The position numbers and the translations under genes were made by a program. A stretch of 64,000 nucleotides of DNA from positions 997 through 64,996 of the forward strand of contig DJJI01000003.1 in NCBI GenBank assembly GCA_002434045.1. The letters run 5' to 3'. A model generated the notes under the pieces. The model made no database searches. It saw only the letters and a program-made list of their open reading frames with translations, and was not told the origin of the DNA. Source of the stretch: Candidatus Saccharibacteria bacterium UBA6572. Its GTDB lineage: Bacteria; Patescibacteriota; Saccharimonadia; Saccharimonadales; Saccharimonadaceae. Shown here piece by piece: positions 6,024 to 63,992 of this stretch (the first letter of the stretch is position 1; each line of letters begins with the position of its first letter).

Positions 6024-6091
6024 TAACCATGAGTGTGATATAGTCACATCATATTAAGCAATCGTGCTAACAAATTAGGGGGTATATAACA

Positions 6092-6559: not shown

Positions 6560-6586
6560 TTAGATAGCTGGTTAGGGCAATCTCAT

Positions 6587-6615
6587 AAATAACGCGCCGT
6601 TTCGGCGCGTTATTT
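6587..6615 (+). terminator. Rho-independent terminator after the pilin gene
   Basis: Perfect 12-bp stem aaataacgcgcc / ggcgcgttattt with a 5-nt loop and a T-rich tail. Confidence 0.85.
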
Positions 6616-6621
6616 GCTATC

Positions 6622-7449: not shown

Positions 7450-7478
7450 TTAAAACGGTTGTGCTATAATCAACTCAA

Positions 7479-28305: not shown

Positions 28306-29175
28306 ATGAAACAAAAAGTTTCCACCAGAGCAATCATCAAGCAGGACGGCAAGGTCCTGCTTTTGCGCCGTAAGGGCGGCCGACCAAGTATCCGAGGTAT
28401 GTTCGAACTCCCGGGGGGTAGGGTGCACATGAACCAACAGCCCGAGGACGCCATACGACATGCGCTCAGAATCCATGCTGGTGTGTCTGCAGAAACGGTT
28501 CAACTGTCCGATGTCTTGTCGTTTGTCGACCCAGATGATCGTGAGCTGCAATACGTCTTCGTCGTGTACGAAGCGACGCTCAAGCCGACCGACAAAACGG
28601 TTGCGCTGAGCAATGAGTATGACAAATACGTTTGGAAAAAGTTGTCAGATGCACAGCGGAATGAACTCACACAATCGACTCTGCAGATACTTGGCTTACA
28701 GGAGATACCGTACGCAACAAGTACTCCCCAAGAGGTAGATATGACGAGCGATGTCAAAAATTCTACTATTTCATCAGCGATCATCTACTCGGATGGTGGT
28801 TCCCGAGGCAACCCTGGTCCATCAGCAAGCGGTTTCGTCATTATGAACGAAACCGGCGAAGTTGTAATGGAAGGCGGTGCCTACCTAGGTGTTACGACCA
28901 ACAATGTGGCTGAATATCAGGCAGTTTATCTCGGACTTGAACGAGCACAAGAGCTCGGAGTACGAGTGGTAGACTTTCGTATGGACTCACAACTCGTTGC
29001 GAACCAGATGAACGGTATCTACAAGATAAAACACCCGGATCTTGCGATCATCAATAACCGAATCAAGGAACTCACTCAGCAGTTTGAGCGAGTTACGTTC
29101 TCGCATGTACGCCGTGAATACAACAAGTTAGCTGACGGTGTCGTCAACAAGATTCTCGATCAGCACCAAGCATAA
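28306..29175 (+). CDS. Fusion protein: Nudix-fold domain (degenerate Nudix box) + RNase HI
   Basis: The N-terminal half is ELPGGRVHMNQQPEDAIRHALRIHAGV; the Nudix box position is retained, but the RE..EE glutamates are replaced. The C-terminal half has the RNase H DEDD contexts YSDGGSRGNPGPSA, NNVAEYQAV, MDSQLV and NKLADGV. Confidence 0.8.
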   Translation: MKQKVSTRAIIKQDGKVLLLRRKGGRPSIRGMFELPGGRVHMNQQPEDAIRHALRIHAGVSAETVQLSDVLSFVDPDDRELQYVFVVYEATLKPTDKTVALSNEYDKYVWKKLSDAQRNELTQSTLQILGLQEIPYATSTPQEVDMTSDVKNSTISSAIIYSDGGSRGNPGPSASGFVIMNETGEVVMEGGAYLGVTTNNVAEYQAVYLGLERAQELGVRVVDFRMDSQLVANQMNGIYKIKHPDLAIINNRIKELTQQFERVTFSHVRREYNKLADGVVNKILDQHQA

Positions 29176-39731: not shown

Positions 39732-42035
39732 TTAGATTGTCCCCATGTTGAAGTCTTTACGAATCAATTTTACCTCACGCTTTAGTTGGCGAGAACGAGC
39801 CCAGAAGAAGGTGACGATCGTGCCGATTACACCAGCGAACAGGAGGTTTTCACCCGGACCGGTTTTTGGCAGCTCAGACACTGCTGATTCCACCAGTTTC
39901 GGTGTCTCGCACGCTACAGGTATATTAACGGTGTTACCAAACGAGTTAGTCATGATGCAGTCGTAGCTGCTTGGTTCCGATGCACCACGTGCTGTTGTCG
40001 GGATGGTATGGAGTAACTGGATAACAAAGCTGCGGCTCGTCTTCTCACCAGGTTGAAGCGTGATGTCGCCCCAAGCGAGCACTTTGTTAGCCTCATCGAA
40101 GGTTCCACCACCATTTTGGATCAGCTTAGCGTATTCGAGGACGTCACTCAACTCCTCTGACACCGTACGTGTCATCGGTAATTGACCAACGTTCTCAAGG
40201 TAAACAGTGTATTCGATACGGTCACTCGCTTGCGCCTTCATGGTTGTGGCGTCAACGCCCTGCGTGAGGTTGCGGCCAGTCTTTGACTCGGTTACCTGGA
40301 TACATGCAGGGTTGTTGTTCTCGCATGGGTTTTTACAGTCATCGAGGTTCTTCGAGTGTTTTGAAGCATCAAACTCAGTTTCCTTGATGGAGATAATAGT
40401 CTTTGAGGCCAGCTCACAAACCTGTATCACTGCGACGGGTGGGTTAACTGTGACCGTTGCGTCATCGCAGTCATCGGTCTGAGTTGGCTGAGATGGGCTC
40501 ACTTCGGCTGCGTTGACGCAAGCCGTGTTCACGAGCGAGCCTGCAATATATTTCGCCACCTTTGCGGTGATGGTGATAGTCAGACTTTCACCCATCTTAA
40601 GCGTTGGGATCGTATATGACCATTTATTGTTCTTGATATTGCCAACGCTTGCGCTCTGCATTGTGACACCATTTGGCGCAGGATCCGTAACCGCGACGTT
40701 CTTGAGGTTAACTTCCCCAGTATTCGTAACGGTTAACTGGTAGGTGAAAGGGGCGTTGACTTCGACAGCTTTGAGATCAACACCATCTACCTTCTTATCT
40801 ATATCAACAGCTGGTGTTGTCGGGGCATTGACTTTGAATGAGGCGACACAGTTTTCATTTGTCTTATCTCCCTCAGAGGTCTTAACCGTAACCCGAGCGG
40901 TATAAGTGCCTGGTTCGCTGATATTAAGGCGACCACTACTTGCCTTTAGCGACGTCGTAGAGACGTCTTTGGTCAGTACGACAGATTTACCTGAGTCAAT
41001 TACAGTGAAACGATAACTCTTTATCTTGGCACCATTTTCAGCTAGAGCCTTACCCTCGAGGCTAAAGTCAGTGCGACTGATGCGGTTAAAGATTAATTGC
41101 TCGCACTTTGCGACCGGTTCAGGCTTGATGCAGCCGCCTGGAATTGTAGCTGTTTTGTCGAACTGGACAGTCGAATCACCCCAACCAGCGAGTGGCACCA
41201 TGACTCCCCACACTTTGGTCGACTCCTCAGATTTTTTATATTTTTCAGGAACCTTAACACTGAATTTATTTTCCTTGTCGGTCATGATCGGACCAACTTT
41301 CTCACCTTTTCCTGGAGGACCGTCAAAGTATAGGAAAACCTTGATACGTGCGTCTTTATCGCGGCTATCAACCGCCTTACCACGCACCATTTCACAGCTG
41401 GCGGCGATGAAGTGGGCACCAACATCAGGCTTTGGCGTGTTGCGAGTAACCAGGTTGCCACAGTCTTTCATGATGGCGAACATACCGCGTTTTGCGGAGT
41501 GACCAACGAAAGCTCCGTAGGTCGACCCGTTGGCAATCGTATAAGAGGTGCTGTCAAATAACCAAAGAGGACGAGAGTAGATAGTTGTGGCGCCACCGGT
41601 ATCAAGTGGCACTGAATGCTTCACTTCACCTTGGCCAGGGCTGAATCGCTTAGCTCGTCCCCAAGTCTTCCAAGCGTCATTGTCGGTGCCGTGCCCCTTG
41701 CTATTGATCGTTCCTTCACGCATATTTGCGAGCTCGGCACGGGTAATACCGTTGTAATCCATGATGTCTTTGAAATCGCTACGAAGTTTGTCATATTCAG
41801 CCAGGACGGCTTTCTTTGATTGCACACCACCGTAGATCATGTCCGAGCCGTTTGCCGCGTTTGCAGATTCAGGGGGGGTGAACACTGTCAATGACTGCAC
41901 AACAAGTGCTAGTGCAGTAAATACCAGCCCAAGCCGTCGGGTTGCCTCCTCTTTCTTTAGGCGCTTTGCATAAAAACCAAGTTGGCCCACCAAAGCCGGG
42001 GAAAAAGCGAGATTCGATACAATCTTGCGAAACAT
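39732..42035 (-). CDS. LPXTG-anchored surface protein with DUF11-type repeat domains
   Basis: C-terminal sorting signal LPKTGPGENLLFAGVIGTIVTFFWARSRQLKRE. Ig-like repeats of DUF11 type (TYQLTVTNTGEVNLKNVAVTDPAP; EYTVYLENVGQLPM) are present, along with an N-terminal TM/signal anchor. The start is taken at MFRKIV (42035). Confidence 0.8.
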   Translation of the reverse strand: MFRKIVSNLAFSPALVGQLGFYAKRLKKEEATRRLGLVFTALALVVQSLTVFTPPESANAANGSDMIYGGVQSKKAVLAEYDKLRSDFKDIMDYNGITRAELANMREGTINSKGHGTDNDAWKTWGRAKRFSPGQGEVKHSVPLDTGGATTIYSRPLWLFDSTSYTIANGSTYGAFVGHSAKRGMFAIMKDCGNLVTRNTPKPDVGAHFIAASCEMVRGKAVDSRDKDARIKVFLYFDGPPGKGEKVGPIMTDKENKFSVKVPEKYKKSEESTKVWGVMVPLAGWGDSTVQFDKTATIPGGCIKPEPVAKCEQLIFNRISRTDFSLEGKALAENGAKIKSYRFTVIDSGKSVVLTKDVSTTSLKASSGRLNISEPGTYTARVTVKTSEGDKTNENCVASFKVNAPTTPAVDIDKKVDGVDLKAVEVNAPFTYQLTVTNTGEVNLKNVAVTDPAPNGVTMQSASVGNIKNNKWSYTIPTLKMGESLTITITAKVAKYIAGSLVNTACVNAAEVSPSQPTQTDDCDDATVTVNPPVAVIQVCELASKTIISIKETEFDASKHSKNLDDCKNPCENNNPACIQVTESKTGRNLTQGVDATTMKAQASDRIEYTVYLENVGQLPMTRTVSEELSDVLEYAKLIQNGGGTFDEANKVLAWGDITLQPGEKTSRSFVIQLLHTIPTTARGASEPSSYDCIMTNSFGNTVNIPVACETPKLVESAVSELPKTGPGENLLFAGVIGTIVTFFWARSRQLKREVKLIRKDFNMGTI

Positions 42036-42117
42036 TTTTCCTGTTTGTTTTATTTTTGTCTCCTTAAGAGAAACATTAGCATAATAAATATGTTCAATGC
42101 AATAGATTTCCAGTTGG

Positions 42118-42146
42118 TTGCCTGAGTACAATTTGCCAGGTATAAT
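42118..42146 (+). promoter_or_regulatory. Candidate gyrB promoter
   Basis: TTGCCT, a 17-nt spacer, then TATAAT (42141-42146), located 35 nt upstream of the gyrB ATG. Confidence 0.45.
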
Positions 42147-42174: not shown

Positions 42175-44157
<1,983 letters not shown>

Positions 44158-44160
44158 ATT

Positions 44161-46695
44161 ATGGACGATGAAACAACCACACCACTTGAGGGCGAAGTTT
44201 TGCCACAGACTCACTCAAAGACACTTGAGCTAAGAACTGTCGAGAACATTATGGAAGATAGCTTCCTGAAATATTCGATGTCAGTTATTGTTGAACGCGC
44301 CCTTCCTGACGTACGAGACGGTCTGAAGCCGGTTCATCGCCGCATCCTGTACTCTATGAACCAAAACGGCAACCGTAGTAACGCGAAGTTTGTGAAGTCG
44401 GCACGTATCATCGGTGACGTCATGGGTAAGTATCACCCGCACGGTGACACAGCGATTTATGACTCAATGGTGCGACTCGCTCAAGAGTGGAGCATGCGCT
44501 ACATGTTGGTGCAAGGTCAGGGAAACTTCGGTTCTATGGATGGTGATCCACCAGCTGCACACCGATATACCGAAGCTCGCATGAACAAGCATGCCGAAGA
44601 GCTTCTCGTCGATATCGACAAAGAAACTGTCGATTTTCGCGATAACTTCGATGGCTCTGAGCAGGAACCTATCGTGTTGCCTGCTAAGTTACCGAACCTT
44701 CTTCTGAACGGTCAGATTGGTATTGCAGTTGGTATGGCAACAAACATTCCACCACATAATCTATCCGAACTGGTCGACGCTACCATCGAAATGATCGACA
44801 AGGGCGAAGATGTTACGCTTGACGACCTTCTGAAGCATGTGAAGGGGCCAGATTTCCCAACCGGCGGTGTTGTGTACGGCGGGGTACCTATGCGACAAGC
44901 ATACGCAACCGGACGAGGTAGTGTTGTTATCCGTGCAGTTGCTGACATCGAAGAGTCCAAGAAAGGTCGTCACCAGATTGTCGTAACAGAGATGCCTTAC
45001 GCCGTAAATAAAGCAACGTTAATTGAACGAATAGCTGATCTTGTCAAAGAGAAGAAGCTTACGTCGATTTCTGACCTCCGTGACGAATCAGCCCGAGGCA
45101 AAGTTCGGGTCGTCATCGAGCTTAAGAAAGACGCTTACCCGAAGAAGGTACTCAACCAGCTCTATAAGATGACCTCTCTTCAGACAAGCCTCCACTATAA
45201 TATGCTCGCGCTTGTCGACGGTCTTCAGCCGAGAGTACTTGGCTTACAGGACATCTTGAGTGAGTACGTTAAGCATCGACAAACCGTTGTTAGACGCCGT
45301 ACTGAATTCGAGCTACGCAAAGCTCAGGAACGAGCTCATATCCTCGAGGGGTACAAGATTGCGCTTGATAATATCGATGAAGTCATACGTATTATTCGTG
45401 CCAGCAAAACAAGTGATGAGGCCGAGAAGAATCTCGTCAAATCATTCAAGCTGAGCGAGATTCAAGCCAAAGCTATTCTAGCTATGCAGCTCCGCCGGCT
45501 TACAGGCCTCGAACGACAGGCGATTGAGGACGAGCTCAAAGAACTTCTTGCGCTCATTGCGAAGCTTGAAGGTATCCTTTCAAGTGAACTTGAGATACTC
45601 AAGATTATCAAAACCGAGCTTCTCGAGATGAAAGAGAAGTATGGTGATGAACGACGAAGCCAAATCATGAACCATGAGCTAGGCAAGATCAGTGAAGAGG
45701 AAATGATCGCTGATGAAAATGTAGTAGTTCTTTTGACAACAGAAAACTACGTTAAACGTACCTTAGCCACTGATTACCGTCGTCAGCATCGCGGCGGTAA
45801 GGGTAAGCGAGGCATGACGACTAAGGAAATGGACGTCATTGACCAGCTCGTTACCTGTTCGACCCATGACTGGCTGCTGTTCTTTACTAACCGGGGCCGC
45901 GTCTTCCGCCTCAAGGCCTATGAAGTACCGGCTGCTAGCCTCCAGGCTAAAGGTGTTGCGGTTGTGAATCTACTCCAACTCCAGCCTGAAGAGAAAATCA
46001 CCTCGATGATTAAGATCGGCAAGGAAGAAAGTGACGAAGGTTACCTCTTTATGAGTACTACGCACGGTACCGTCAAAAAGACACCGCTCAAGGATTATGC
46101 TAATATTCGTCAAACAGGTCTGATCGCTATCAAGCTTGATGATGGCGATGAGCTGCGCTGGATCCGTAGAAGTTCAGGTGACGATGAGATTATCATCAGC
46201 ACCAATTTCGGTCAGGCTATCCGTTTCAAAGAGTCTGATGCTCGTCCGATGGGTCGTGCGGCCCGTGGTGTTCGCGGTATCCGCCTTCGTCCTGGAGACA
46301 GCGTTGTTGGTATGGATCTCGCCAATGAAGACCGTAAACTACTTGTCATGAGCGAGAATGGCTACGGTAAGTTGACTAAGGTTGAGCACTTCGCAACGCA
46401 CAAGCGCGGCGGCGTCGGCATAAAGGCGGGTGTAGTTAACAAAAAGACCGGTAATATCGTGACGGTAACGTCACTTGATCCAGCATCGTCAGAGGTGTTG
46501 ATGATTTCGGTCAAGGGTCAAACGATTCGCGTTTCACTTGAGGACATACCGACACTTGGTCGCACGACACAGGGCGTGCGTGTGATGCGTCTTAATGATG
46601 ATGATAGCGTGACTTCGATCGGCTTCATCCCCGAGCAGCAGCGAGAACTCGTTGGTGATGCAGATGAAGCAGAAGCTAACAGAGCAGAGGATTAG
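44161..46695 (+). CDS. gyrA: DNA gyrase subunit A
   Basis: [19 protein letters not shown], the active-site region [10 protein letters not shown], the QRDR context [10 protein letters not shown], and a C-terminal beta-pinwheel. Confidence 0.97.
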
Positions 46696-47282: not shown

Positions 47283-48801
<1,519 letters not shown>

Positions 48802-49085: not shown

Positions 49086-49162
49086 GGGGCGTTAGCTCAG
49101 TTGGCTAGAGCACCTGCTTTGCAAGCAGGGGGTCCGGGGTTCGAGTCCCCGACGCTCCACCA
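49086..49162 (+). tRNA. tRNA-Ala (anticodon TGC)
   Basis: ggggcgt acceptor with G3:T70, anticodon loop ttTGCaa, T arm ccggggttcgagtccccg, and an encoded CCA. Confidence 0.95.
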
Positions 49163-49268: not shown

Positions 49269-49345
49269 GGGCGATTAGCTCAGTTGGTTAGAGCGCGTCA
49301 CTGATAATGACGAGGTCGGAGGTTCAAATCCCTCATCGCCCACCA
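49269..49345 (+). tRNA. tRNA-Ile (anticodon GAT)
   Basis: gggcgat-ta-gctc-agttggtta-gagc-g-cgtca-ctGATaa-tgacg-aggtc-ggagg-ttcaaat-ccctc-atcgccc-a-cca. It is flanked by complementary segments attctcac / gtgagaat. Confidence 0.95.
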
Positions 49346-49816: not shown

Positions 49817-52800
49817 ATGGAAAACAAAGATTATTCAACGACAGGTTCGTCGTTGGGGGACCTAAATGGTAACCCAGGGGTTTCTGTTGCTCAACAACCT
49901 GTCACTTCAGCGGGTACGACGTCAGTTTCTGGTGGCGCTACGCAGCCAGGCCTATCTGTGAAGGTTGGCAAAGGACTGCCAAGTTCATGGAAGTTGATCG
50001 TTGTTAGCCTTCTTTTCATTGCGGGTCTTGCACTCGTAGGTTTTCTCGGATATCGACAGTACCAACAGGGACAGCTGAGTAATCCGGCGCAGAGCGCCGC
50101 CCCGGCGGATACCTATGCTATTCAAGATATTAACCTGGATGACCTTGTAGCATCTGGCGGTCTTGACCTTGCAACCTCGCAAGCACTGAGCGTGAATGGC
50201 CAGCTACGCACGAATAATTCACTCATTTTGACACCGACAGAACGTCCGAGCGACGGTAGTGCCGGACAACTCTACTATGACCAAGGTGAGAACGGACTGG
50301 CGTTCTTTAACGGTACAGAGTTCGTCAGTGTTGCGTCAGAACAGGATCTGACAGAGCTTCGCACCCAACTACAGGGTGTCCAGGCAAGCATACCGACGAT
50401 TCCAAACATCCCAACTATCCCATCAGATTTGGCAACTCTCGGATCGCAAAACGTTTTCCAAGGATTAAACTCGTTCAATGGTGGGCTCAATACTGCCAAC
50501 CTCACAGTTAGCGGTAGCGCTGCCCTGCAGGGCAGCCTGACAGTAAATGGTCCAGCTACTCTCGGCGCGACAACGATGTCGAGTCTACTGCTTTCATCTC
50601 CACTCAGTGTGAGCTCTGGAGGGACAGGTACTACAAACCTTACAAACAACGGTGTCTTGATCGGTCAGGGAACGAGCCCGATTTCGGCTGTAACAGCAGG
50701 AGGCGCTGGACTCTGTCTGTTATCAACAGCCGGGGCGCCAGCGTTCTCAGCGTGTCCGGGTGGGGGTGGTTCAGGCGTTAACTCGCTTAACGCCTTGATA
50801 GGTGACCTGACTATCGCGAACAGTAGTGCTGCAGGCACGGTTATCACGATCAATGACGCATCGACGAGCGCCAAGGGCATAGCGAGCTTTAACGCTGGTA
50901 ATTTCATCGTCACAAGTGGCGCGGTCAATACTGTGCAAGATATCAGTGTCACCGCATCACCGACATTTGCGAATGTAACAGCTACAACACTCTCCGGTAG
51001 CGGTAGCGGGGTCACGAATCTGAACGCGAGTAACGTGAGCAGTGGAACTCTTGGTGACGGGCGTCTTAGCGTGAATGTGCCGCTGCTCGGCGCGGCGACA
51101 AACAACTTCACTGGCACGCTCCAGCAAGCGGGCAATACCGTCTGTGACAACTCAAATAACTGTGGATATTTGACTGGCTCGGCAGCTGATGGTTCATACG
51201 TACAACTTCAGGTCGGTACCCCTGGAACGGCACAGACCGGACATTTTAATATCACTGGTACTGGTATCGCCAATGCCTTAACCGCCGTGACACTAGCTGG
51301 TAACGGAGCTGCTGTGACAAACGTGAACGCTGCTCAGCTGAATAGTCAAGCGCCGAGCTATTACCTCAACGCGACTAACTTGTCTGCTGGTACGCTTAAT
51401 GACGCACGCTTGAGTGCAAATGTCGCCCTCCTGAACGCGGCAACAAACAACTTCACCGGCACGCTCCAGCGAGCTGGGAACGATGTCTGTGACAACTCAA
51501 ACAACTGTAATTATCTAACAGGGAGCGCCGCTAACGGTGCCTACGTTCAGCTGCAGGTTAGTACCCCTGGAACGGCACAGACCGGACATTTTAATATCAC
51601 TGGTACGGGACGCGCTGCTGCTCTTTACCAAAACGGAAACCAAGTCTGTGACACGACCGGTAACTGTGCAGGCCTCGGTGGTAGTTTGACGGGTTCGGGC
51701 ACGACAGGAACTATTGCAAAATTTACAGCTAGTGGAAACCTCGGTGACTCACTGCTCACGGAGAGCGGAAGCGTGATAACCGTTAACGGTGATCTGTTCG
51801 CTGATAGTTTCGATGGAGATGGTTCAGCTGTTACAAACGTAAATGCAGCCCAACTTGGTGGACAAGTTGCTGGCTACTACCTCAATGCAACAAATATTAG
51901 TTCAGGTACGTTGTCGGACTCGCGACTTAGTGCGAATGTTACGATACAAGGTAATACCTTTAACGGTGCGAACCAGTTGGTTCAGCTCAATGCCTCAAGT
52001 CAGTTACCGGCTTTGTCAGGTGCGTTACTTACGAATCTAAATGGTAGCGCAATCACGAGCGGTACCGTCGCAGACGCGCGTCTCAGCGCAAATATCCCAC
52101 TACTCAACGCCGCTACGAACAACTTCACCGGCGCGCTCCAGCAAGGTGGCAATGACGTGTGTGACGACTCGAATAACTGTAATTACCTAACAGGATCGGC
52201 AGCCAATGGCGCATATATCCAGCTACAGGGCACAACTCCGGGATCGGCACAGACAGGAAATATTAATATCACAGGCACCGCAATCGCCGGTAACTTCAGC
52301 GGCAATGGATCAGCGCTATCCAATCTCAACGCCAGTAACCTGGCTTCGGGATCGGTCGCGGATGTCCGTCTCAGTGCGAATGTTCCTCTGCTAAATGCCG
52401 CTACGAACAACTTCACGGGTACGATACAACAAGGCGGTAACGATGTCTGTGATGACTCCAATAACTGTAACTATCTCACCGGTAGTGCAGCAAACGGGCT
52501 GTACGTGCAATTACAGGGAGCAACTCCTGGCAGTGCTCAGACAGGTCACTTAAACATTACTGGCACCGCGATCGCCGCAAACTTTAGTGGTAATGGCTCC
52601 GCCCTAACAAGCTTGAACGGTACTAATATCAGTTCTGGCACCGTTGCTGACGCACGACTTACGAGTAATGTGACACTCCAAGGCAATACGTTTAACGGTG
52701 TGAGCCAGTTGGTTCAAACCGACGGCTCAGGGCAATTACCAGCTCTTTCCGGGGTACTGCTCACGAGTCTCAATGGTAGTAATATCGCGTCTGGCACCGT

Positions 52801-54616
52801 TGCTGACGCACGTCTCAGTGCAAACGTCGCGCTCCTCAACGCAGCGACCGTGAACTTCACCGGCACCCTCCAACGGGCTGGTAGCAACGTGTGTACCGCA
52901 AGCGGTAACTGTACGAGCGTGACAGCTATTGGCGCACTCGATGGGGGAACGGCAAATGCGACAGGCGCAACCTTATCAAGTAATACATTATATCTACAGA
53001 GTGCGAGCGCGACATACGCTGGATTGGTCAACACTTCTTCTCAGAGTTTTGCAGGTGTGAAGACGTTTACGAACGGGGCCGTACTCTCAGCTGATCAGTC
53101 GCTGACACTATCGAGCTCAACTGGTAACAGCGCTCTACTGTCGGTCGGTGGTCTCAACAGCGCAGCCCTTACCGTCGATACATCTGCCTCAACTGGCTCA
53201 CTACGCGTGGCGATCGGCGTGCCGGGAACCTGTGGAACGGGCCGGTTCTGCGTGAACCAGGGCGTTACTTCATCGTCGGGTGGCGGACCGTTCACGAATT
53301 CACAGAACATCCTAGATATAAACAGAACATCCGCATCAGCGATCACATTTACCGGGCAACGCGTGAGGGTTAACGATGTGACAACCGGTGGAGTAGCAAA
53401 TAATATACAGGGCTTCATCGTTGATTCACGTGCGGGTACGACCAATAACTCAGCGACGATCAACAGCTACATGGCAGATATCTCGAGTAGCCATGGTGGC
53501 AACTTCCTTTGGCTGCAGCACAATGGCTCGACGAACGTCTTTACGGTGACGAACGCTGGCAACCTGACGACGAACGGCACAGGAGCCTTCACTGGCAATC
53601 TGACAACGAGTGGGAATCTCGGCGCTAACAATGCGTCACCTAACTTCCGCCTGACGGTAAATTCCCAAGGTACAGGTACGCATAACTCAGCAGCTTATAT
53701 TAATACTGGTTCAGCGAGTGACACTGGACTTATTATCCAAGGGGTTTCAGGCCAATCTGGTAATTATCTCACAGTGAAGTCATCCTCGGGTGGTGTGGTT
53801 GCGAGCATTAGCGCCTCAGCAGGGAGCTTCTATAATGCTGGTAGTTACTCAGCGGGAAATGGCCAGTTTATTTCTGAGGACGGTGTCGGATCGAGCAGCA
53901 CGAGCGTTATCGTGCGAAGTGGTGGTGCGACTGGCGGCAGCTCAACGACCGGTGACGTCACAATACGGAGTGGAAACGGTACTAGTGGCGCTTCGTCCGG
54001 TAATATCATCATCGATAGCGGTAATGCTGCAGGAACAACCGGGGCGGTTAGTATCGCGGCTAGCAACGCTAGCGCGCTAGCGTTAGGACGTTCAGGGATC
54101 ACGACAACCTTTGCTGGTAATACTCTCTATAATGGCTCGAACAATACAATCAGCGTCAACTCGGCAACTGCACTGTTGATACAGAACACGAGCGCAACCG
54201 CGCTGTTTACCGCCAACACCAGTACGATGACAGTCACGGTTAGATCGCTCGACGTAACACTGAACCTAACGGTCAATGGACATCTCATCAGCGGTGGTAC
54301 GGCGCCAGGTATCTCAGCTGGGACGGCAGCGTGTACGAGTCCAACGGTATCAGTTTCAGGAACTGATACATCCGGTCGCATCACCGTTAAGACTGGTACC
54401 GGATGTGCTTCTGGAGGAAGGCTGGCAACGATAACTTTCGCAACTGCGTTCGGCGCAGCTCCAAGAGTGACACTCACCCCGGCAAGTCAAAATGCGGCAG
54501 GTCTCACGACGTATATCGACGATTCAACGATCAGCACAACGGCATTTGACCTCTCGACGACCACAACCGCGGCGAACAGCACGACATACCGTTGGTACTA
54601 CCACGTCATTCAGTAA
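49817..54616 (+). CDS. Giant N-terminally anchored surface protein with tail-fibre-like repeats and a lectin-like C-terminal domain
   Basis: 1599-aa ORF with a single TM near the N-terminus (WKLIVVSLLFIAGLALVGFLGY). It carries five copies of a ~65-aa module RLSANV.LLNAATNNFTG.LQ..GNDVCD.SNNCNYLTGSAANG.YVQLQ..TPG.AQTGH.NITGT, interspersed SGT(L/V).D.RLS motifs, a Ser/Thr/Gly/Asn-rich beta-type sequence, and a C-terminus ITFATAFGAAPRVTLTP...TAFDLS...YRWYYHVIQ. Confidence 0.85.
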   Translation: MENKDYSTTGSSLGDLNGNPGVSVAQQPVTSAGTTSVSGGATQPGLSVKVGKGLPSSWKLIVVSLLFIAGLALVGFLGYRQYQQGQLSNPAQSAAPADTYAIQDINLDDLVASGGLDLATSQALSVNGQLRTNNSLILTPTERPSDGSAGQLYYDQGENGLAFFNGTEFVSVASEQDLTELRTQLQGVQASIPTIPNIPTIPSDLATLGSQNVFQGLNSFNGGLNTANLTVSGSAALQGSLTVNGPATLGATTMSSLLLSSPLSVSSGGTGTTNLTNNGVLIGQGTSPISAVTAGGAGLCLLSTAGAPAFSACPGGGGSGVNSLNALIGDLTIANSSAAGTVITINDASTSAKGIASFNAGNFIVTSGAVNTVQDISVTASPTFANVTATTLSGSGSGVTNLNASNVSSGTLGDGRLSVNVPLLGAATNNFTGTLQQAGNTVCDNSNNCGYLTGSAADGSYVQLQVGTPGTAQTGHFNITGTGIANALTAVTLAGNGAAVTNVNAAQLNSQAPSYYLNATNLSAGTLNDARLSANVALLNAATNNFTGTLQRAGNDVCDNSNNCNYLTGSAANGAYVQLQVSTPGTAQTGHFNITGTGRAAALYQNGNQVCDTTGNCAGLGGSLTGSGTTGTIAKFTASGNLGDSLLTESGSVITVNGDLFADSFDGDGSAVTNVNAAQLGGQVAGYYLNATNISSGTLSDSRLSANVTIQGNTFNGANQLVQLNASSQLPALSGALLTNLNGSAITSGTVADARLSANIPLLNAATNNFTGALQQGGNDVCDDSNNCNYLTGSAANGAYIQLQGTTPGSAQTGNINITGTAIAGNFSGNGSALSNLNASNLASGSVADVRLSANVPLLNAATNNFTGTIQQGGNDVCDDSNNCNYLTGSAANGLYVQLQGATPGSAQTGHLNITGTAIAANFSGNGSALTSLNGTNISSGTVADARLTSNVTLQGNTFNGVSQLVQTDGSGQLPALSGVLLTSLNGSNIASGTVADARLSANVALLNAATVNFTGTLQRAGSNVCTASGNCTSVTAIGALDGGTANATGATLSSNTLYLQSASATYAGLVNTSSQSFAGVKTFTNGAVLSADQSLTLSSSTGNSALLSVGGLNSAALTVDTSASTGSLRVAIGVPGTCGTGRFCVNQGVTSSSGGGPFTNSQNILDINRTSASAITFTGQRVRVNDVTTGGVANNIQGFIVDSRAGTTNNSATINSYMADISSSHGGNFLWLQHNGSTNVFTVTNAGNLTTNGTGAFTGNLTTSGNLGANNASPNFRLTVNSQGTGTHNSAAYINTGSASDTGLIIQGVSGQSGNYLTVKSSSGGVVASISASAGSFYNAGSYSAGNGQFISEDGVGSSSTSVIVRSGGATGGSSTTGDVTIRSGNGTSGASSGNIIIDSGNAAGTTGAVSIAASNASALALGRSGITTTFAGNTLYNGSNNTISVNSATALLIQNTSATALFTANTSTMTVTVRSLDVTLNLTVNGHLISGGTAPGISAGTAACTSPTVSVSGTDTSGRITVKTGTGCASGGRLATITFATAFGAAPRVTLTPASQNAAGLTTYIDDSTISTTAFDLSTTTTAANSTTYRWYYHVIQ
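51062..52910 (+). repeat. Intragenic repeat array of the giant surface protein (5 module copies, irregular spacing)
   Basis: Module cores start near 51062, 51416, 52078, 52367 and 52811. A perfect 46-nt repeat gtacccctggaacggcacagaccggacattttaatatcactggtac occurs at 51216-51261 and 51561-51606. Confidence 0.85.
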
Positions 54617-54662
54617 AACAGAGGTAATCAGCAAGGGTGGCTATGCTACAATCATTAGCAGT

Positions 54663-55478
54663 ATGAGTAGAAAATACATCGTAAAACGAAACCTTTGGGT
54701 GGCACTGGCGATGGCAGTATCTGCAGTCCCCGCTCTCGTGAGTGCAGAAGCAGCCATCTCGCAAGGGTTTACGTCTGATGAATCAATTCGGACAGGGGCG
54801 CTTGTCAGTTCTGTCAACGATGAAAAACGCATTGAGCCGGCATCGACCGATAACGGCGATAAACTACTTGGTGTGGCCGGCAAGGATTCACTGGTTGAAT
54901 TATCTAATACCTCAACGCAGGTTCAGGTAGTGACGAGCGGTCTGACACAAACATTCGTTAGCGACATAAACGGTGAAGTCGAGGTCGGTGATCCGATCAC
55001 AGTCTCGCCACTAGTTGGTGTCGGCATGAAGGCGACCGAGAGCGGCTATGTTGTCGGGACGGCACGGGCAAATTTCTCAGAAATCTCAGATAAACAGCAG
55101 CATATCGTCAAGGACAAGAGTGGTAATGATAAACAAGTAAATGTTGCGTTGCTACCAATACAGGTAAACGTCATCTACTTCAGCAAAATGGATGACGAGA
55201 AATCAATCCTGCCCCAGTTCCTCATCAATATCGCCCAATCCGTGGCAGGCAAGGATGTTTCAGTTGCACGTATCCTGATCGCCATGCTAGTCCTGATGGC
55301 GGGAATCGGCTCGATCGGTGTCGTGCTTTATTCATCAGTACGGTCGAGTATTCTATCGATCGGTCGCAACCCGTTGGCAGCATCGGCGGTACACAAAAGC
55401 TTGCTCGAAGTATCTCTCCTTTCACTCGGCATCTTGCTTGTCATGCTCGGAGCGGTTTACTTGATTCTTGTCGTTTAG
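54663..55478 (+). CDS. Secreted/membrane protein: signal peptide, ~190-aa extracytoplasmic domain, and a C-terminal two-helix hairpin resembling an ATP synthase c subunit
   Basis: The start is at MSRKYIVKRNLWVALAMAVSAVPALVSAEA (signal peptide). The C-terminal 73 aa read ...LVLMAGIGSIGVVLYSSV-RSSILSIGRNPLAASAVHKS-LLEVSLLSLGILLVMLGAVYLILVV. The ORF track extension to 54492 overlaps the giant gene. Confidence 0.6.
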   Translation: MSRKYIVKRNLWVALAMAVSAVPALVSAEAAISQGFTSDESIRTGALVSSVNDEKRIEPASTDNGDKLLGVAGKDSLVELSNTSTQVQVVTSGLTQTFVSDINGEVEVGDPITVSPLVGVGMKATESGYVVGTARANFSEISDKQQHIVKDKSGNDKQVNVALLPIQVNVIYFSKMDDEKSILPQFLINIAQSVAGKDVSVARILIAMLVLMAGIGSIGVVLYSSVRSSILSIGRNPLAASAVHKSLLEVSLLSLGILLVMLGAVYLILVV

Positions 55479-55489: not shown

Positions 55490-56170
55490 GTGACAACGTT
55501 TACTCCTTATGGTTATTGGGGTATAGTAAGTCGTAGAGAAAAAAGGGGAAATAAAGGGGTGGATACACTACAAATCGTAATGTTGGCTGGGCTTATCCTG
55601 ATGGCCTGTATCAGCTTTGCGAGCCTTGCATGGGCTTCTTTCTTAGACGGTAAGTACCGTAATCGGCCGTCACCCAAGCACTACGCTGTTCATGTCGAGG
55701 GTGTGAATGTTTTCTCCGAAGAAGATATTGCAGCCGCCAAAGAAGAAGCACAGGCTGGTTTCCGCAAAGCGGTGACTGATTCCGTTGGCGCGATCGAGCC
55801 AGCATTGACATCGTCCATCAGCACTATCAGTGAGAAGGCCGAAGAGATGGCCAAGATCACATTGAGCCAAGAGTTTGAAAAGTATCAGAGCAGCTTTGCT
55901 GCCCTTCGTGAAGAGACGATAAAAGAGTTCGGCGAGCTCCAAAAACAAATCGATGCTCGACGCGATCAGCTCGTTATCGACATGGAAGCTCAGTTCAAGA
56001 AACAGCAAGCCGAACGGATGGACGCGTTCAATACTCGGATTGCAGATGTCGTATCAAGTTATCTGGTTGAAGCACTCGATAAAGGTGTCGACCTTGGCGC
56101 ACAGTCGAAATATATCATCCACACACTTGAGGCACACAAAGAAGACATCAAGAAAGATGTATTGTCGTGA
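55490..56170 (+). CDS. atpF: ATP synthase subunit b-like protein (single TM + long charged helix); start uncertain
   Basis: TM MLAGLILMACISFASLAWASF followed by about 170 aa of Glu/Lys/Ala/Gln-rich predicted helix. The stop overlaps the delta start (GTGA). Alternative starts are GTG 55559 (10 nt after AAAAGGGG) and ATG 55580. The call rests on architecture and position. Confidence 0.5.
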   Translation: MTTFTPYGYWGIVSRREKRGNKGVDTLQIVMLAGLILMACISFASLAWASFLDGKYRNRPSPKHYAVHVEGVNVFSEEDIAAAKEEAQAGFRKAVTDSVGAIEPALTSSISTISEKAEEMAKITLSQEFEKYQSSFAALREETIKEFGELQKQIDARRDQLVIDMEAQFKKQQAERMDAFNTRIADVVSSYLVEALDKGVDLGAQSKYIIHTLEAHKEDIKKDVLS

Positions 56171-56655
56171 GTGCTCGTCTGCCTGTCGATGTTTACTCCC
56201 CCGATCAGATCGGGATTGTGCTTTGGGAGCTCGATAAGCTAATAAGCGCTCTGAGGGATACAAACACGAGAAGTGTGGTGACGGGAAGCGAGTCTGTAGC
56301 TGCTGAGCATCATGTGTCAGCGTTGCTACTTGGTGTCCTGCGGACATCTGGTATCTCTGAACGTGACCAGGTGGCGCTTGAGTCGCTCCAAGCGGAACTC
56401 CAAACGGTCCGCAGCTCGGCTCCTGTAGCCCATTTTTTACTATCAGCGCTCCCAAACCGTAATTTCAAACGAGAGCTTGTGGCGTGGTGTCGTCAGAATT
56501 TGCACGAGAACCTGCTCGTAACATTCGCGACCAGAGGTGATCTCGGTGGTGGGTTTGTGCTCAGGGTTGGCTCAAAGCAATATGATTTCACCTATCGGGC
56601 ACAGCTGTTAAATGATAAGAAACGGCTCGTGGAGATCTTTGACAATGTACGATAA
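56167..56655 (+). CDS. atpH: ATP synthase subunit delta (OSCP)
   Basis: 162 aa with the C-terminal pattern ...LLVTFATRGDLGGGFVLRVGSKQYDFTYRAQL typical of OSCP/delta, and a position between the b-like gene and alpha. Confidence 0.7.
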   Translation: MSARLPVDVYSPDQIGIVLWELDKLISALRDTNTRSVVTGSESVAAEHHVSALLLGVLRTSGISERDQVALESLQAELQTVRSSAPVAHFLLSALPNRNFKRELVAWCRQNLHENLLVTFATRGDLGGGFVLRVGSKQYDFTYRAQLLNDKKRLVEIFDNVR

Positions 56656-58065
56656 CAGCGCCTTTGAGCAGATGATCTCTGTCGGTAATCCGACCGGTGA
56701 AGTCATCGGTGTCGAGCGCTTTCTGATCAAAATCAAAGGCCTTGATGGAGCACCGGTTGGGGCGTTAGCGATGCTGCAAACCGGCCAACACTGCGTGATT
56801 CGTGAGATTCGTGATGGCTATGTTTTAGCACTCAACCTCGATACTGAGACGACTTCGATTGGTACACTTGTTGTACTCGAGGAGCTTGAACTAACAACCC
56901 CTGTTGGTGAGGCGATGATTGGTCGCGTTGTAAATCCACTCGGCCAGCCGTTAGATGCCAAAGGCGAGCTGACATTGACTGAAAGTCGACATGTTTTTGC
57001 TGAGGCGCCAGGTATCCACGAACGCAGTATCTTAAAGGACCAGTTATTTAGTGGTGTCACAATGGTTGATATGCTTTTTCCAGTAGTACTAGGCCAGCGC
57101 ATCGCCGTGCTCGGTGATACGAAATCAGGCAAATCAAGCTTTTTGATGCAGCTCGGCGTTAATCAAACAGGCAGTGATCGCATCGTTGTCTATGTCCTCA
57201 TCGGCAAGCGACGTGTTGAAATCGATCAAACGATTAGCCAGCTTAACGAGACAGGAGCGATACAGAATAGTATCGTTGTCGTTGCCAACATCTTTGACTC
57301 ACTTGCGCAGTCGTATATCGCACCATATGTCGGCTGTGCGATCGCCGAACACCTATGGCATGGAGGACGTGATGTCGTCATCGTTTACGATGACCTATCT
57401 TCGCACGCCAAGATTCACCGGGAAGTCTCGCTCCTCGCCAAGGTCAACCCTGGTCGTGACAGCTACCCGGGTGATATGTTCTACTCACATTCATCGCTAC
57501 TTGAGCGTGCTGGAAAGCTTGCGAGTAACGAGAAGACACTCACAGCCCTGCCAGTTGTCGTGACTCCAGGGGATGACATCACAGCCTACTTACCGACAAG
57601 TATTATGTCTATCACGGATGGACAAATCATCTTTGACCTCGCAACATTCCGTCGCAACATACGACCGGCCGTCAAAACCGGTCTATCGGTCTCACGTGTT
57701 GGTGGTCGAGCGCAGACAACGTCACAAAAACGTCTTTCGACGGCGCTTATGCAACGACTTGCGGCATATCAACAAGCGCAAGAGTTCGCCCACTTCGGCT
57801 CGGATATGTCGGCTGAGTCAAAACAGACGCTCGAACTTGGTAAACAGATCTATGAGGCCTTGCGCCAGACACCAACGGAGCGACTATCGATCGTCGAGCA
57901 AGAAATAATGTTGCGCGCTATCGTGCTTGGTGATGGCAAGCGATCCCTGAACGTCATGCAACTCAAACAGCAAGCCCACGTGGTCGCAGAGACGGTGCAG
58001 AATGAGGCGGATATCGAGAGACTATCCCAAGAAGTTCTCGAACAGTCAGTCGTGGAGGCAGCGAC

Positions 58066-58069
<4 letters not shown>
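56645..58069 (+). CDS. atpA: ATP synthase subunit alpha (divergent)
   Basis: P-loop GDTKSGKS, Walker B VVIVYDDLS, Arg-finger context GLSVSRVGGRAQ and PGDDITAYLPTSIMSITDGQI. The start is at MYDNSAF (ATG 56645). Confidence 0.9.
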
Positions 58070-60508
<2,439 letters not shown>

Positions 60509-60591: not shown

Positions 60592-61146
60592 ATGGATTTT
60601 AAAGCTCAAACAAATCAGCAACCACAGCCTCAACCATCGGCTCCGCAACCTGCTGCACCTCGATCAGAGGCTATCTCACAAGTTGCTCCAACAGGTAGCG
60701 GCGGATCTGGTGGTCGCAAGCTCATAGCACTCGTCGTCGGCCTTGTCGTCGTTGCTATCATCGCCGTTGTCGGTGTGCTTTTATGGCAGGGCAGCCAAAG
60801 TGGTGAGACAACAGAAACCACGAGTGTCGACACGAGCAAATATCAAGCTGTTTTCATGACAAACGGTCAGGTTTATTTCGGTAAACTCTCAAATCTCGAC
60901 AGCAAGTACAGTGAGTTGACAGATGTCTACTATCTCCAGGTTCAACAGCAGAACATCCAGCCTGGTACCGGTGGCAACACCACCAACAGTGAACAACCAC
61001 AGGTCTCACTGACAAAGCTTGGTCAGGAGCTACATGGTCCAACTGACAAGATGCACATCGCTAGCGAGCAGATTCTCTTCTGGGAAGATCTCAAAGACGA
61101 TAGCACCGTCGTAAAGGCCATCAAGGACTACCAGGCTAAACAGTAG
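60592..61146 (+). CDS. Hypothetical bitopic membrane protein (Pro/Gln-rich cytoplasmic N-terminus, TM, ~110-aa external domain)
   Basis: 184-aa ORF with TM LIALVVGLVVVAIIAVVGVLLW. I recognise no motif. Confidence 0.5.
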   Translation: MDFKAQTNQQPQPQPSAPQPAAPRSEAISQVAPTGSGGSGGRKLIALVVGLVVVAIIAVVGVLLWQGSQSGETTETTSVDTSKYQAVFMTNGQVYFGKLSNLDSKYSELTDVYYLQVQQQNIQPGTGGNTTNSEQPQVSLTKLGQELHGPTDKMHIASEQILFWEDLKDDSTVVKAIKDYQAKQ

Positions 61147-61199: not shown

Positions 61200-63293
61200 T
61201 TAATCCTGGTTTGTACGTCGACTCAAGTAGCGCTCAGTACCGAGTAATGAAAGTCCAAGTGAGAGCGTGATTGCCGTGAATAACCAGTCGGTCTGAGAAA
61301 GCTTGTTCTGTTCCACCTGTTGGTTCACGGCCATACCCGAGCCAGTTGGTACGGATGGGCTAAGGATATCTGCGCTTGCCAGCGTGGCGACGCCGTCGTC
61401 CGAGGCCTCAAGGGTATAGCTTCCGTCGTTTTGCGGGACGAATCGGAAGGCGCGGACAGTGTTTGCCGTGAGCTGCGGGCCAACATTTGTCGTACTGTGC
61501 GTTGAAGGATTACTACTAGACGGTATTGTTCCAGCAGCCGTGTTAACGCCAAAGCTACCGTGCCAACTTCCGAAGACGTTGATAAACAAGATACCGAACC
61601 AGTCACTGAGTGCAAACTGACTATTATTGAGGTTAAGAATGTTAACTGCGGCATAGGCATCACCAGATGTAGCATCACCAGCCTTCGTGTTATTGGCGAC
61701 CGTCGCATCACCTGAACTTGCAGTGAGATTGATATCATTGACGATCGCTTGATCGGTCACGGCATCGATATCAAACGTCGAGTTTTCCGTTATACCGCCA
61801 CCGAGAGCGGCAGACGTCGTGCCGGCCGGCGCATCAACGATGACACCGACCCATGTCCCCATTACATTGATGAATACGAGAAGAGCGTTCTTGCCGACGA
61901 CTTGTTTACCTGTCAGATTGAGGAGGGTGATATTCGTATCGGCGTTACCCGAACTAGCGTTACCGGCTTCAGTGTTGTTGGTGACATTTGCCGAGCCGCT
62001 TGATGCCGTGGCATTCACGTTATTGGTTGTCGAGGCGGTGTTGTTGAATTCCCCGAGCACGGACGCGTTATTGATATTGCTAGTATCAAGCGTACCGAGA
62101 GTATTCGATGCGAGCAGGGTACTGATCAGTTCTTGGGGCAATAAAATATCGCCATCAAGGTTGCCGTAGATGTTGAGCATGCCGAGTAACGAATTACCAC
62201 TGATGATAGATGAGTTGATTGCGTTGATGATGTTGGCGATGACCGTTGCGGTGCCGGTCGTGGCATTCCCCGCCTCAGTATTGTTCGTAACACCGGCGTC
62301 ACCAGAAGCGGCCTCGAGGCTTATGGTGTTATGAATAGCTGCGTCACTTGATACATTCACGTCGATGTCGCCGCTCGTTTGCGGGTTGCTAGACCGAGAT
62401 GGGTCTGGTGGTTGCAACCATAGGTCACCAAGTATGTTACCGAAGAGATTTTGAGTAAATATGTTGAACGCATTGCCAGTGACGCCCATATTCCAGACGC
62501 TCTGGAGGAGATTGAAGACCGTTGCGATCGATGAAGCATTACCACTGAGCGCGCTACCCGCAAGGGTATTCATAGCAACGAGCGCATCGCCAGTGATTGC
62601 TGAAGAATCAATATTATTGCTGATAATTGCGTTATAAAACAGGTCAAAGATGCCTTCAGACTTTGCACCAGACGAGTCGACGCCGTTTGGCGCGAGTCCG
62701 AGTAGGCTTAGAAGTGGTGAACTGGCTCCCGCGCTCTTAGCGCTTGCTGCCTGTTTTGAATCCGTATCAGTTGTCTCGGGTGATCCCTTGCTCGTGTCCA
62801 GCTCAGCGCCTTGTGGAGGAACGGCTATTGAGATGACGTTAGGCTTGTACGTTCCGGATGGTGCATCAAAAACCCACTCAGTCGTGTCCCACATACCGGT
62901 TTGTGGGTTGTAGCTATAGGTAGGTGTTTGCTTTGGAGTTGTTTGATTTGTTGCGGGATTCCAGATGTACTGATCGTTCTCCCACATACCAGTACTATCG
63001 TTGTACGTATAGGTTGTACTGGCGGCACCAGTTGGCTGTGATGGACCCTGGTGCTCTGCTTCTGGTTCAGGTGCGGGCTGTTGTGGCTCTGGTTCAGGTG
63101 CGGGCTGTTGCGGCTCTGGCTCAGGTGGTTGCTCAGCAGGCGCAGGTTCCTGGGTTGTCGTCTCCTCGACTGGTGTCGTTGAGCCGTTTTCGGCCCGAAC
63201 GATATGCGGAAAAGAGAGCGTTGCAACAGAAAGCGCAAGGGCTAGGTATATAATGCGTCGAGATGTGCTGGTTATGGAATAGTTGAGAGTCAT
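61200..63293 (-). CDS. Secreted, C-terminally membrane-anchored repeat protein (Pro-rich tandem repeat, TG(M)W repeats, three Asn/Ser/Gly-rich solenoid-like modules)
   Basis: Signal peptide (IIYLALALSVATLSFPHIVRAEN). It has the tandem repeat EPEPQQPAP x2, the motif TY.YN..TGMW......W twice, and three modules containing A(A/S)SG(D/S)A.VTNNT(E/K)AG(N/D)A(T/S)(T/S)G.A plus ...N..G.W.G. The C-terminal TM is WLFTAITLSLGLSLLG. Confidence 0.7.
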   Translation of the reverse strand: MTLNYSITSTSRRIIYLALALSVATLSFPHIVRAENGSTTPVEETTTQEPAPAEQPPEPEPQQPAPEPEPQQPAPEPEAEHQGPSQPTGAASTTYTYNDSTGMWENDQYIWNPATNQTTPKQTPTYSYNPQTGMWDTTEWVFDAPSGTYKPNVISIAVPPQGAELDTSKGSPETTDTDSKQAASAKSAGASSPLLSLLGLAPNGVDSSGAKSEGIFDLFYNAIISNNIDSSAITGDALVAMNTLAGSALSGNASSIATVFNLLQSVWNMGVTGNAFNIFTQNLFGNILGDLWLQPPDPSRSSNPQTSGDIDVNVSSDAAIHNTISLEAASGDAGVTNNTEAGNATTGTATVIANIINAINSSIISGNSLLGMLNIYGNLDGDILLPQELISTLLASNTLGTLDTSNINNASVLGEFNNTASTTNNVNATASSGSANVTNNTEAGNASSGNADTNITLLNLTGKQVVGKNALLVFINVMGTWVGVIVDAPAGTTSAALGGGITENSTFDIDAVTDQAIVNDINLTASSGDATVANNTKAGDATSGDAYAAVNILNLNNSQFALSDWFGILFINVFGSWHGSFGVNTAAGTIPSSSNPSTHSTTNVGPQLTANTVRAFRFVPQNDGSYTLEASDDGVATLASADILSPSVPTGSGMAVNQQVEQNKLSQTDWLFTAITLSLGLSLLGTERYLSRRTNQD
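63063..63119 (-). repeat. Tandem 30-nt coding repeat (Pro/Glu/Gln-rich linker)
   Basis: tggttcaggtgcgggctgttg(t/c)ggctc occurs twice in tandem (63063-63089 and 63093-63119) and encodes PEPEPQQPAPEPEPQQPAP. Confidence 0.8.
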
Positions 63294-63404: not shown

Positions 63405-63992
63405 CTAGTTACTGACCGTTACGATGGTCTCAGACGTGTTTACATTACTTGCGTCACCGCTCGATGCACTACCGCCTGTGGTGTTGCCAGAGACGTTCGC
63501 CGATCCAGATGAGGCACTTTGCGAATTGGAGTTCGTAACGTTTACCTCATTGTGGTTGTGAACGTGAACCTTAGTGTGGCCATTGAACGTGACTTGGTTG
63601 TTCGAGTTAGGTCCGGTTGCTCCGGTGATGGCTCCGCTCATGTTACCAGCACCAGCACCAGTTGTAGCGTCACTACTATTTGTGAGACTAACACTCGTGC
63701 CCGCGTAGTTGTCATTCATCGCATCGCCACTGCTGGCTGAGCCACCGGTCGTGTTGCCGGATACATTGGCTGAGCCGGTGCTTGCACCTTGGCCGTTTGA
63801 GTTACTGACGTTAACCTTATTGCGGTTGTGAACAGATCGCCAGTCCGATCCGTTGAACGTCACTTGGTTATTTGAGCTTGGTCCTGTTGGGCCAGTGATC
63901 GTTCCCGTGGTTGCTGCTGATGCGACACCTGCACTAAAGCCGACGCCCAGCACAGTTGCAGCAGTGACACGTAGAAGTTTCAATTTTTTCAT
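63405..63992 (-). CDS. Small secreted protein made of two ~80-aa Asn/Ser/Gly/Thr-rich repeats (curlin-like composition)
   Basis: Signal peptide MKKLKLLRVTAATVLGVGFSAGVASA. The unit ITG.TGP.SNNQVTFNG....VHN.N.VNV.NSN.Q.AS.GSANVSGNTTGGSASSGDA occurs twice. It shares the SG.A.V..NT..G.A.SG.A motif with the neighbouring 697-aa protein. Confidence 0.7.
   Translation of the reverse strand: MKKLKLLRVTAATVLGVGFSAGVASAATTGTITGPTGPSSNNQVTFNGSDWRSVHNRNKVNVSNSNGQGASTGSANVSGNTTGGSASSGDAMNDNYAGTSVSLTNSSDATTGAGAGNMSGAITGATGPNSNNQVTFNGHTKVHVHNHNEVNVTNSNSQSASSGSANVSGNTTGGSASSGDASNVNTSETIVTVSN

Follow-up and report, generated by a model that had tools for sequence, protein, structure and literature searches.

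Some Mollicutes carry, besides a genuine F1Fo ATP synthase, seven-gene clusters named F1-like X0, which encode alpha-, beta-, gamma- and epsilon-like subunits and contain neither subunit a nor subunit c (PMC3369863). Type 2 of these clusters is the gliding motor of M. mobile (MMOB1610-1670), and Type 3 is the MIB-MIP-associated form, MMCAP2_0575-0581 in M. mycoides (PMC3369863, PMC12994834). MIB-MIP, a surface system that cleaves antibodies, depends on the Type 3 ATPase, the MIB and MIP genes are adjacent to it, and the MMCAP2_0577 protein co-purifies with the F1-like subunits, MIB and MIP (PMC12994834). Canonical operons are described for the class Saccharimonadia: Southlakia epibionticum has a single set only, in the order AtpZ/I-a-c-b-delta-alpha-gamma-beta-epsilon, and 12 rhodopsin-bearing freshwater genomes have the order a-c-b-delta-alpha-gamma-beta-epsilon. 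Why Candidate Phyla Radiation (CPR) bacteria that lack respiration keep an 'ATP synthase' is an acknowledged open question (PMC10633639, PMC11665869). Here we analyse a stretch of 64,000 nucleotides from Candidatus Saccharibacteria bacterium UBA6572 (assembly GCA_002434045.1, contig DJJI01000003.1, positions 997 to 64,996; the whole stretch is called the window below), in which an F1-like cassette without a or c is headed by an uncharacterised, Saccharimonadia-specific gene that we call gene X.

Gene X (54663..55478, + strand, 271 aa) is followed by genes for a b-like protein, delta, alpha, gamma, beta and epsilon, and together they form a seven-gene operon. We tentatively read X, with slightly less than even confidence, as the membrane-spanning component of a Saccharimonadia-specific F1-like rotary ATPase that lacks subunits a and c and is analogous to the mycoplasma F1-like X0. 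Both are seven-gene clusters with alpha/beta/gamma/epsilon-type subunits and without a or c. One component of F1-like X0 has a signal peptide, one or more extracellular domains and two C-terminal transmembrane (TM) helices (PMC12994834), as predicted for X, a likeness that is architectural only. F1-like X0 is associated with surface proteins, and in the window's clade X or the cassette has genes for giant surface proteins at its side; both systems occur in genome-reduced, host-dependent bacteria. The Saccharimonadia cassette differs from F1-like X0 in that it retains a stalk of b-like and delta/OSCP subunits, while its operon encodes neither the 12-TM protein (none of its products is polytopic) nor the small cytoplasmic protein. 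The cassette's alpha and beta are also much nearer to canonical F1 (382 versus 279 bits for beta, as detailed below), and X is small, with an ectodomain that resembles phage decoration proteins.

The catalytic core of the cassette is readily recognised. Alpha (56612..58069, +; true start probably Met12 at 56645) matches PF00006 (E 1e-62) and PF00306, and its best PDB matches are F1 alpha chains (E 3e-92). Gamma (58066..58929, +) matches PF00231 (E 8e-31). Beta (58926..60230, +; PF00006, E 1e-63) has the Walker A motif GGAGVGKT and a DELSEED-like SELSPDE; it is shortened to 434 aa and shares about 50% identity with the canonical F1 subunit (E 2e-114). Against the PDB it scores 382 bits with PS3 beta, and M. 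mobile G1 beta ranks far lower at 279 bits. The C-terminus of beta matches the V/A-type model PF22919, not the F-type model, and no Pfam match to the N-terminal beta-barrel PF02874 was found in alpha or beta. Epsilon (60227..60508, +, 93 aa; PF02823, E 3e-13, residues 11-86) consists of the beta-sandwich domain only, the C-terminal helical (regulatory) domain being absent. The stalk subunits are more divergent. Delta/OSCP (56167..56655, +) gives a weak OSCP match in the window copy (E 0.005), OSCP being matched in 5 of 6 diverse orthologues (24.6 bits for the L055 copy, against a gathering score of 22.3), and it has a conserved G-G...D-W-S motif. The b-like stalk protein (55490..56170, +) is assigned only by its architecture, one N-terminal TM helix followed by a coiled coil; its true start may be ATG 55570. 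The window copy has no Pfam match, an orthologue gives one weak ATP-synt_B match (E 0.049), and the C-terminal motif D-L-G-A-Q..Y...L-E-x-H-K is conserved. As a side observation, the beta gene is split into two open reading frames (ORFs) by a frameshift or stop in two related loci (L007, 6161-7543; L018, 9962-11305), where a sequencing error or a pseudogene is possible.

The cassette thus retains alpha, beta, gamma, delta and epsilon, and b by architecture, and its operon, here as in all cassettes examined, has no gene for a or c. Regular expressions and a small c-subunit hidden Markov model (HMM) detected neither canonical gene anywhere in the 64-kb window, and neither the operon nor the window contains an a-like motif or a multi-TM ORF. 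Searches around related loci agree. The c-subunit HMM has no match in 166 loci within 8-10 kb on either side of the anchor gene, the ±10 kb around all 86 cassettes contain neither a nor c, and precomputed Pfam annotation shows neither within ±10 kb in L001-L006. A second alpha/beta set is likewise missing within ±10 kb in the 86 loci checked. The canonical operons of the same class have an identical gene order from b to epsilon, whereas they carry PF00119 (a), PF00137 (c) and a full-length 511-aa alpha; the window has X in the place of a and c. Alpha and beta of M. amalyticus are of canonical sizes and spacing.

We collected relatives of the operon by searching one-genome-per-species contigs with the window's beta, which gave 80 loci of the Saccharimonadia type with beta identity from 82% down to 55%. 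Upstream DNA is sufficient in 73 loci, and X adjoins the cassette lacking a and c in 71 of them. The usual order has X first, directly upstream of b. At two loci X is found, still adjacent, at the opposite end of the cassette: L079, where it directly follows epsilon, and L138 of the X-anchored set described below. The genes upstream of X differ between loci. At 54 of 70 beta-anchored loci, the more divergent majority, no gene for a giant surface protein of the tail-fibre-like kind seen beside X in the window flanks the cluster, and X still abuts b. The link between X and the cassette is therefore deep and class-wide, and the link between X and the fibre genes belongs to one clade.

The start of gene X is most likely ATG 54663 within the ORF 54492-55478, and the translation of 55257-55475 (+) gives the 73 C-terminal residues. 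An NCBI product (P0001), annotated 'hypothetical protein' in a Candidatus Saccharibacteria metagenome-assembled genome, is 100% identical to X over 271 aa and is among the 403 homologues found in a protein search. Neither the X protein nor its last 68 residues belongs to any family in Pfam and NCBIfam. The N-terminus, MSRKYIVKRNLWVALAMAVSAVPALVSAEA, can be read directly as a Sec-type signal peptide (about residues 1-30; 54663..54752, +), with a basic n-region, a hydrophobic core and an A-x-A-like c-region. In the AlphaFold2 (AF2) model of full X (120 homologues in the alignment; predicted local distance difference test, pLDDT, 87.9), residues 32-173 form a beta-rich domain, 185-195 a short helix, and 201-235 and 237-270 a pair of long helices; residues 2-20 of the signal peptide are helical, and confidence is low around residues 25-27. 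The hairpin modelled by itself reaches pLDDT 94.5. The short juxtamembrane helix (55215..55247, +) goes with a conserved LPxF motif in which P184 and F186 are nearly invariant. Helix 1 (55263..55367, +) is predicted to run from outside to inside and helix 2 (55371..55472, +) from inside to outside, joined by a one-residue break within a G-R-N-P turn (55362..55373, +). Because a signal peptide is followed by two TM helices, this turn is placed in the cytoplasm, and the predicted topology is N-out/loop-in/C-out, as in subunit c, with an added external part at the N-terminus. The preliminary description of this DNA had the architecture right: the hairpin, the R-N-P loop, the signal peptide and the external domain all appear in the translation and the model, and ORFs and Pfam matches bear out its placement of X ahead of the b/delta/alpha/gamma/beta/epsilon genes.

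That description had also likened the hairpin to subunit c by three hallmarks, and we compared 158 unique X-family hairpins with 81 c subunits. The polar turn is conserved: R, N and P are invariant, G is present in 157 of 158, and the whole loop reads S-S-I-I-S-[IV]-G-R-N-P-[LM]. The two other hallmarks do not extend to the family. The AGIGSIG motif in helix 1 of the window's X is confined to a subclade, and helix 1 of the family has 17.6% Gly plus Ala (7% Gly) versus 57% (30% Gly) in c subunits. The membrane glutamate, Glu249 in helix 2 (codon 55407-55409), is not conserved, with E in 90 hairpins, Q in 59, R in 3, T in 2 and V in 1 (E 57%, Q 37%, other 4%), whereas the carboxylate column of c subunits is E or D in 81/81. 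The near-invariant residue of helix 2 is Tyr266.

The suggested homology with subunit c found no support in profile comparisons. Scanning with PF00137 gave no match for full X and the 68-aa hairpin (hmmscan, E ≤ 1) or for 31 X-family hairpins (E ≤ 10), and an X-hairpin profile found no c subunit among all PDB sequences (E ≤ 10). The same profile has 693 matches among 1.84 billion representative proteins; in the best 150 of them the hairpin is C-terminal in X-type proteins of about 250-316 aa or fragments thereof, and these 150 include neither the c-subunit family nor a free-standing intermediate form of about 80 aa. The c-subunit family itself is far larger than 693 representatives, since a word-indexed search of a 90%-identity collection gave 7,752 of 8,000 candidates at E ≤ 0.001. 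Direct profile alignment of the 158 hairpins with the 81 c subunits (hhalign) scored 14.3 (P 0.042, probability 1.2%), and the maximum of 20 column-shuffled controls, 12.5, was barely under it. This alignment puts the R-N-P of X in register with the R-Q-P turn of subunit c, at P 0.042 only.

The structural comparison points the other way. In a Foldseek search of the PDB with the hairpin-only model, every one of the top 49 matches is an F-type c subunit; TM-scores are mostly about 0.7-0.85, root-mean-square deviations mostly 1.6-2.7 Å and sequence identities 13-27%. X thus shares with subunit c (AtpE, PF00137) a hairpin of two helices that agrees in length and geometry, an R-(Q/N)-P polar turn, the predicted topology and a gene position ahead of atpF. 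It differs from subunit c in having no profile similarity, no conserved carboxylate and no GxGxGxG motif in helix 1, in its N-terminal extension of about 200 residues (signal peptide and ectodomain), in the lack of an adjacent subunit a, and in a gene that sometimes follows epsilon or lies off the cassette. We conclude that X is c-like in fold and position and that its membership of the c-subunit family is not demonstrable; with four sequence and profile methods negative and two of three hallmarks non-conserved, we rejected X as a true member of that family. Two related candidates were also rejected. X forms of about 150 aa, considered as intermediates between c and X, begin at a conserved internal G-M-K-A-T Met and are hence taken to be miscalled or truncated genes, and an AtpZ/AtpI-like identity of the hairpin has no PF09527 or PF03899 match at E ≤ 10.

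The exported part of X is a beta-rich ectodomain of about 155 aa (54753..55214, +). Its closest Foldseek matches in the PDB are phage proteins, the Borrelia phage BB1 outer-shell protein (E 5.6e-5) and also TW1, lambda gpD and SHP, and in BFVD they are preneck appendage, head fibre and tail proteins (best E 2.9e-9). Some family members match PF23982 (XM1_gp53) above its gathering score of 27 (P0113, 30.6 bits; P0104, 27.5 bits), and in the window's own copy this domain is below detection with Pfam. The modelled fold thus resembles the phage capsid decoration or cement type and the N-terminal domains of fibre anchors, as in XM1_gp53, lambda gpD, BB1 outer-shell and preneck appendage proteins. 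The X domain differs from these in being cellular, predicted to be exported by Sec, and fused to a membrane hairpin.

These features suggest how such an ATPase might work. From its sequence and model, X would be exported by Sec and display its phage-like ectodomain on the cell surface, while its two C-terminal helices would re-enter the membrane, with the S-S-I-I-S-x-G-R-N-P loop between them on the cytoplasmic side. A normal F1 with a peripheral stalk would be assembled from alpha3-beta3, gamma, the epsilon beta-sandwich, delta and b. In F-ATPases, the foot formed by gamma and epsilon contacts the R-Q/N-P loops of the c-ring. By analogy with the c-ring, the retention of gamma and epsilon implies that a membrane docking surface is needed, and the G-R-N-P loop of X is the obvious candidate; the foot might dock on the loops of a c-ring-shaped X oligomer. 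ATP hydrolysis could then be passed through X to the ectodomain and, in the window's clade, also to giant tail-fibre-like proteins. Classical ion translocation is unlikely, given that a carboxylate is not conserved in X and that subunit a is missing from the operon.

A number of observations weigh against X as the membrane part of an F1-like ATPase. In two loci, L046 and L075, no X lies within 10 kb of the cassette. A second set of loci, anchored on X in metagenome contigs (one of them, L088, is a 100% identical twin of the window), is more evenly divided: among the 31 loci with at least 5.5 kb of downstream DNA, alpha, gamma and beta are present in 15, and the other 16 show no atp gene within 8 kb, so X may work without an adjacent ATPase, or without any. 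The preliminary description had envisaged that the family might lie apart from atp genes in other genomes; this is so for about half of the long X-anchored loci and not for the beta-anchored ones. The structural matches of the hairpin have weak E-values (0.12-1.4), as the query has 76 residues only. A simple helical hairpin can converge on the geometry of subunit c by itself, and VirB2-type pilins of the Southlakia type IV secretion system have also been assigned the c-subunit fold by others. The proposed contact between X and gamma/epsilon is drawn by analogy with the c-ring. Helix 1 is without the small-residue packing motif of c-rings, so a tight ring of X is not implied, and without a membrane stator nothing is evident for a rotating X ring to work against. 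Finally, canonical atpB and atpE could lie elsewhere in genomes with X, and complete canonical operons do exist in other Saccharimonadia, namely Southlakia and the 12 rhodopsin-bearing genomes.

The X genes without neighbouring atp genes form a few clades nested among the linked ones. Their loci have the order parA-parB-lepB(-)-X-giant gene, lepB being signal peptidase I on the opposite strand (examples among L111-L165 are L136, 4397-13367, and L118, 5279-16723), and the N-terminus of the giant protein is homologous to a 1599-aa protein encoded just upstream of X in the window. The latter (49817..54616, +) is a tail-fibre-like surface protein in which a short cytoplasmic stretch precedes a single N-terminal TM anchor, and which has many repeats of about 100 aa with the motif L-N-A-[ST]-N-[IL]-S-[SA]-G-T-[LV]-x-D-A-R-L-S-A-N-V. 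Its gene stops 46 nucleotides before X, and a consensus scan across the junction found no terminator. In relatives, giant homologues of 2000-2650 aa are encoded after X or after epsilon. These associations raise the possibility, in our view unlikely and about as probable as the split operon discussed below, that X is mainly an anchor or assembly platform for giant fibres: the ectodomain would bind the fibres, the hairpin would merely anchor, and the adjacency of atp genes would reflect co-regulation or insertion of the cassette. A tail-fibre-like gene lies directly after X in 33 metagenome loci and directly before it in 4, including L088. Where atp genes are present in the window's clade, the fibre gene usually follows epsilon (X-[b..epsilon]-fibre in 20 loci, against fibre-X-[b..epsilon] in the window), and L138 has [b..epsilon]-X-fibre. 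X-like ectodomains occur within giant proteins encoded just upstream of X in L109 (71 bits with the X HMM; residues 2308-2444 of the giant ORF 2-7840), L027, L093 and L021, which suggests that X and the giants share a phage-like module. The resemblance of the ectodomain to head-fibre, preneck-appendage and decoration proteins and the 16 long loci having X without atp genes fit the same explanation. However, it is in the window's clade that X or the cassette has giant genes at its side; they are absent at the 54 of 70 divergent loci where X still abuts b, and the window's own fibre protein has no X-like domain. A plain anchor would also leave unexplained the invariant 11-residue loop, predicted to be cytoplasmic, and the persistence of X beside the cassette after rearrangement in L079 and L138.

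A further possibility, to which we likewise give a low probability, is that the cassette is the F1 and stalk part of an ordinary F1Fo with atpB and atpE elsewhere, X being an accessory, an assembly factor or simply an unrelated gene in the same transcript. Split atp operons exist in other bacteria, canonical a and c genes do occur within the class, and each of alpha, beta, gamma, delta and epsilon can be recognised and is nearest to canonical F1. However, the documented Saccharimonadia a and c genes sit in one contiguous complete operon, not in a detached atpBE, and neither gene lies near any of the 86 cassettes. The short beta, only about 50% identical to its canonical counterpart, and an epsilon without its C-terminal domain also argue against an ordinary enzyme.

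A bolder form of the F1-like interpretation is rather improbable: X would be a c-ring-shaped rotor without ion sites, and F1 held by b and delta would use ATP hydrolysis to rotate the phage-like ectodomains and the giant tail-fibre-like proteins attached to them, or to drive them by a power stroke. These ultra-small episymbiotic CPR bacteria would then have an outward surface motor that arose independently of mycoplasma X0 and replaced the proton-coupled ATP synthase. We find it very improbable that X is a genuine but extremely diverged c subunit that carries an external domain and forms an ion-translocating ring with an unrecognised a-like partner, because, although the c-like fold, the predicted topology, the R-N-P loop, the operon position and an hhalign score slightly above all 20 shuffled controls speak for it, four methods detected no significant sequence or profile similarity, the carboxylate column is Q in over a third of hairpins, there is no family-wide Gly motif, the operon encodes no multi-TM a-like protein, and no free-standing form of about 80 aa is seen among the best 150 of the 693 matches.

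Overall, we suggest that the second of the two roles offered in the preliminary description, an undescribed c-like anchor factor, is nearer the evidence than a c subunit carrying an external domain. It is plausible that X is a c-like anchor in an unusual ATPase, a role that seems not to have been described before, and we found no description of an F1-like ATPase in Saccharibacteria or Patescibacteria in the literature. In at least 71 species-level Saccharimonadia genomes an alpha/beta operon is without a or c and has an uncharacterised exported hairpin protein instead, which bears directly on why respiration-less CPR bacteria retain an 'ATP synthase'. If a and c are also absent elsewhere in the genomes with X, this 'ATP synthase' cannot be proton-coupled, and metabolic reconstructions that score a proton-coupled enzyme are wrong. 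It would then be the second independent case, after the mycoplasmas, of an F1 motor re-purposed for the surface of a minimal host-attached bacterium.

The operon has a recurrent neighbour in the closer clade. A single-pass membrane protein with an external domain, down184 (60592..61146, +; 184 aa, Pro/Gln-rich N-terminus), lies beside the cluster in about 24 of 86 loci, where it either is divergent and upstream of X or follows epsilon, and it occurs in many metagenome loci too. Further upstream in the window are a complete 16S rRNA gene (47283-48800), tRNA-Ala(TGC) (49086-49162) and tRNA-Ile(GAT) (49269-49345). The rRNA operon appears to be split, since no 23S rRNA gene follows the tRNAs and the next gene is that of the giant fibre at 49817. 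Before them lie gyrB-gyrA (42181-46695), which adjoin the genes for a TraG/VirD4-like type IV coupling protein of 970 aa (36212-39124) and a DUF11/DUF7507 surface-repeat protein of 799 aa (39732-42131, -). A 289-aa fusion of an N-terminal NUDIX hydrolase and a C-terminal RNase H of the RVT_3 type is encoded at 28306-29175. No pam genes were identified in the window. At the window's far end, a secreted 697-aa protein without a Pfam match (61200-63293, -) has a Pro-rich N-terminal region, an Asn/Ser/Thr-rich repetitive body and a C-terminal TM helix, and it adjoins a 195-aa protein of two near-identical halves (63405-63992, -). Both are candidates for surface or pilus-related proteins.

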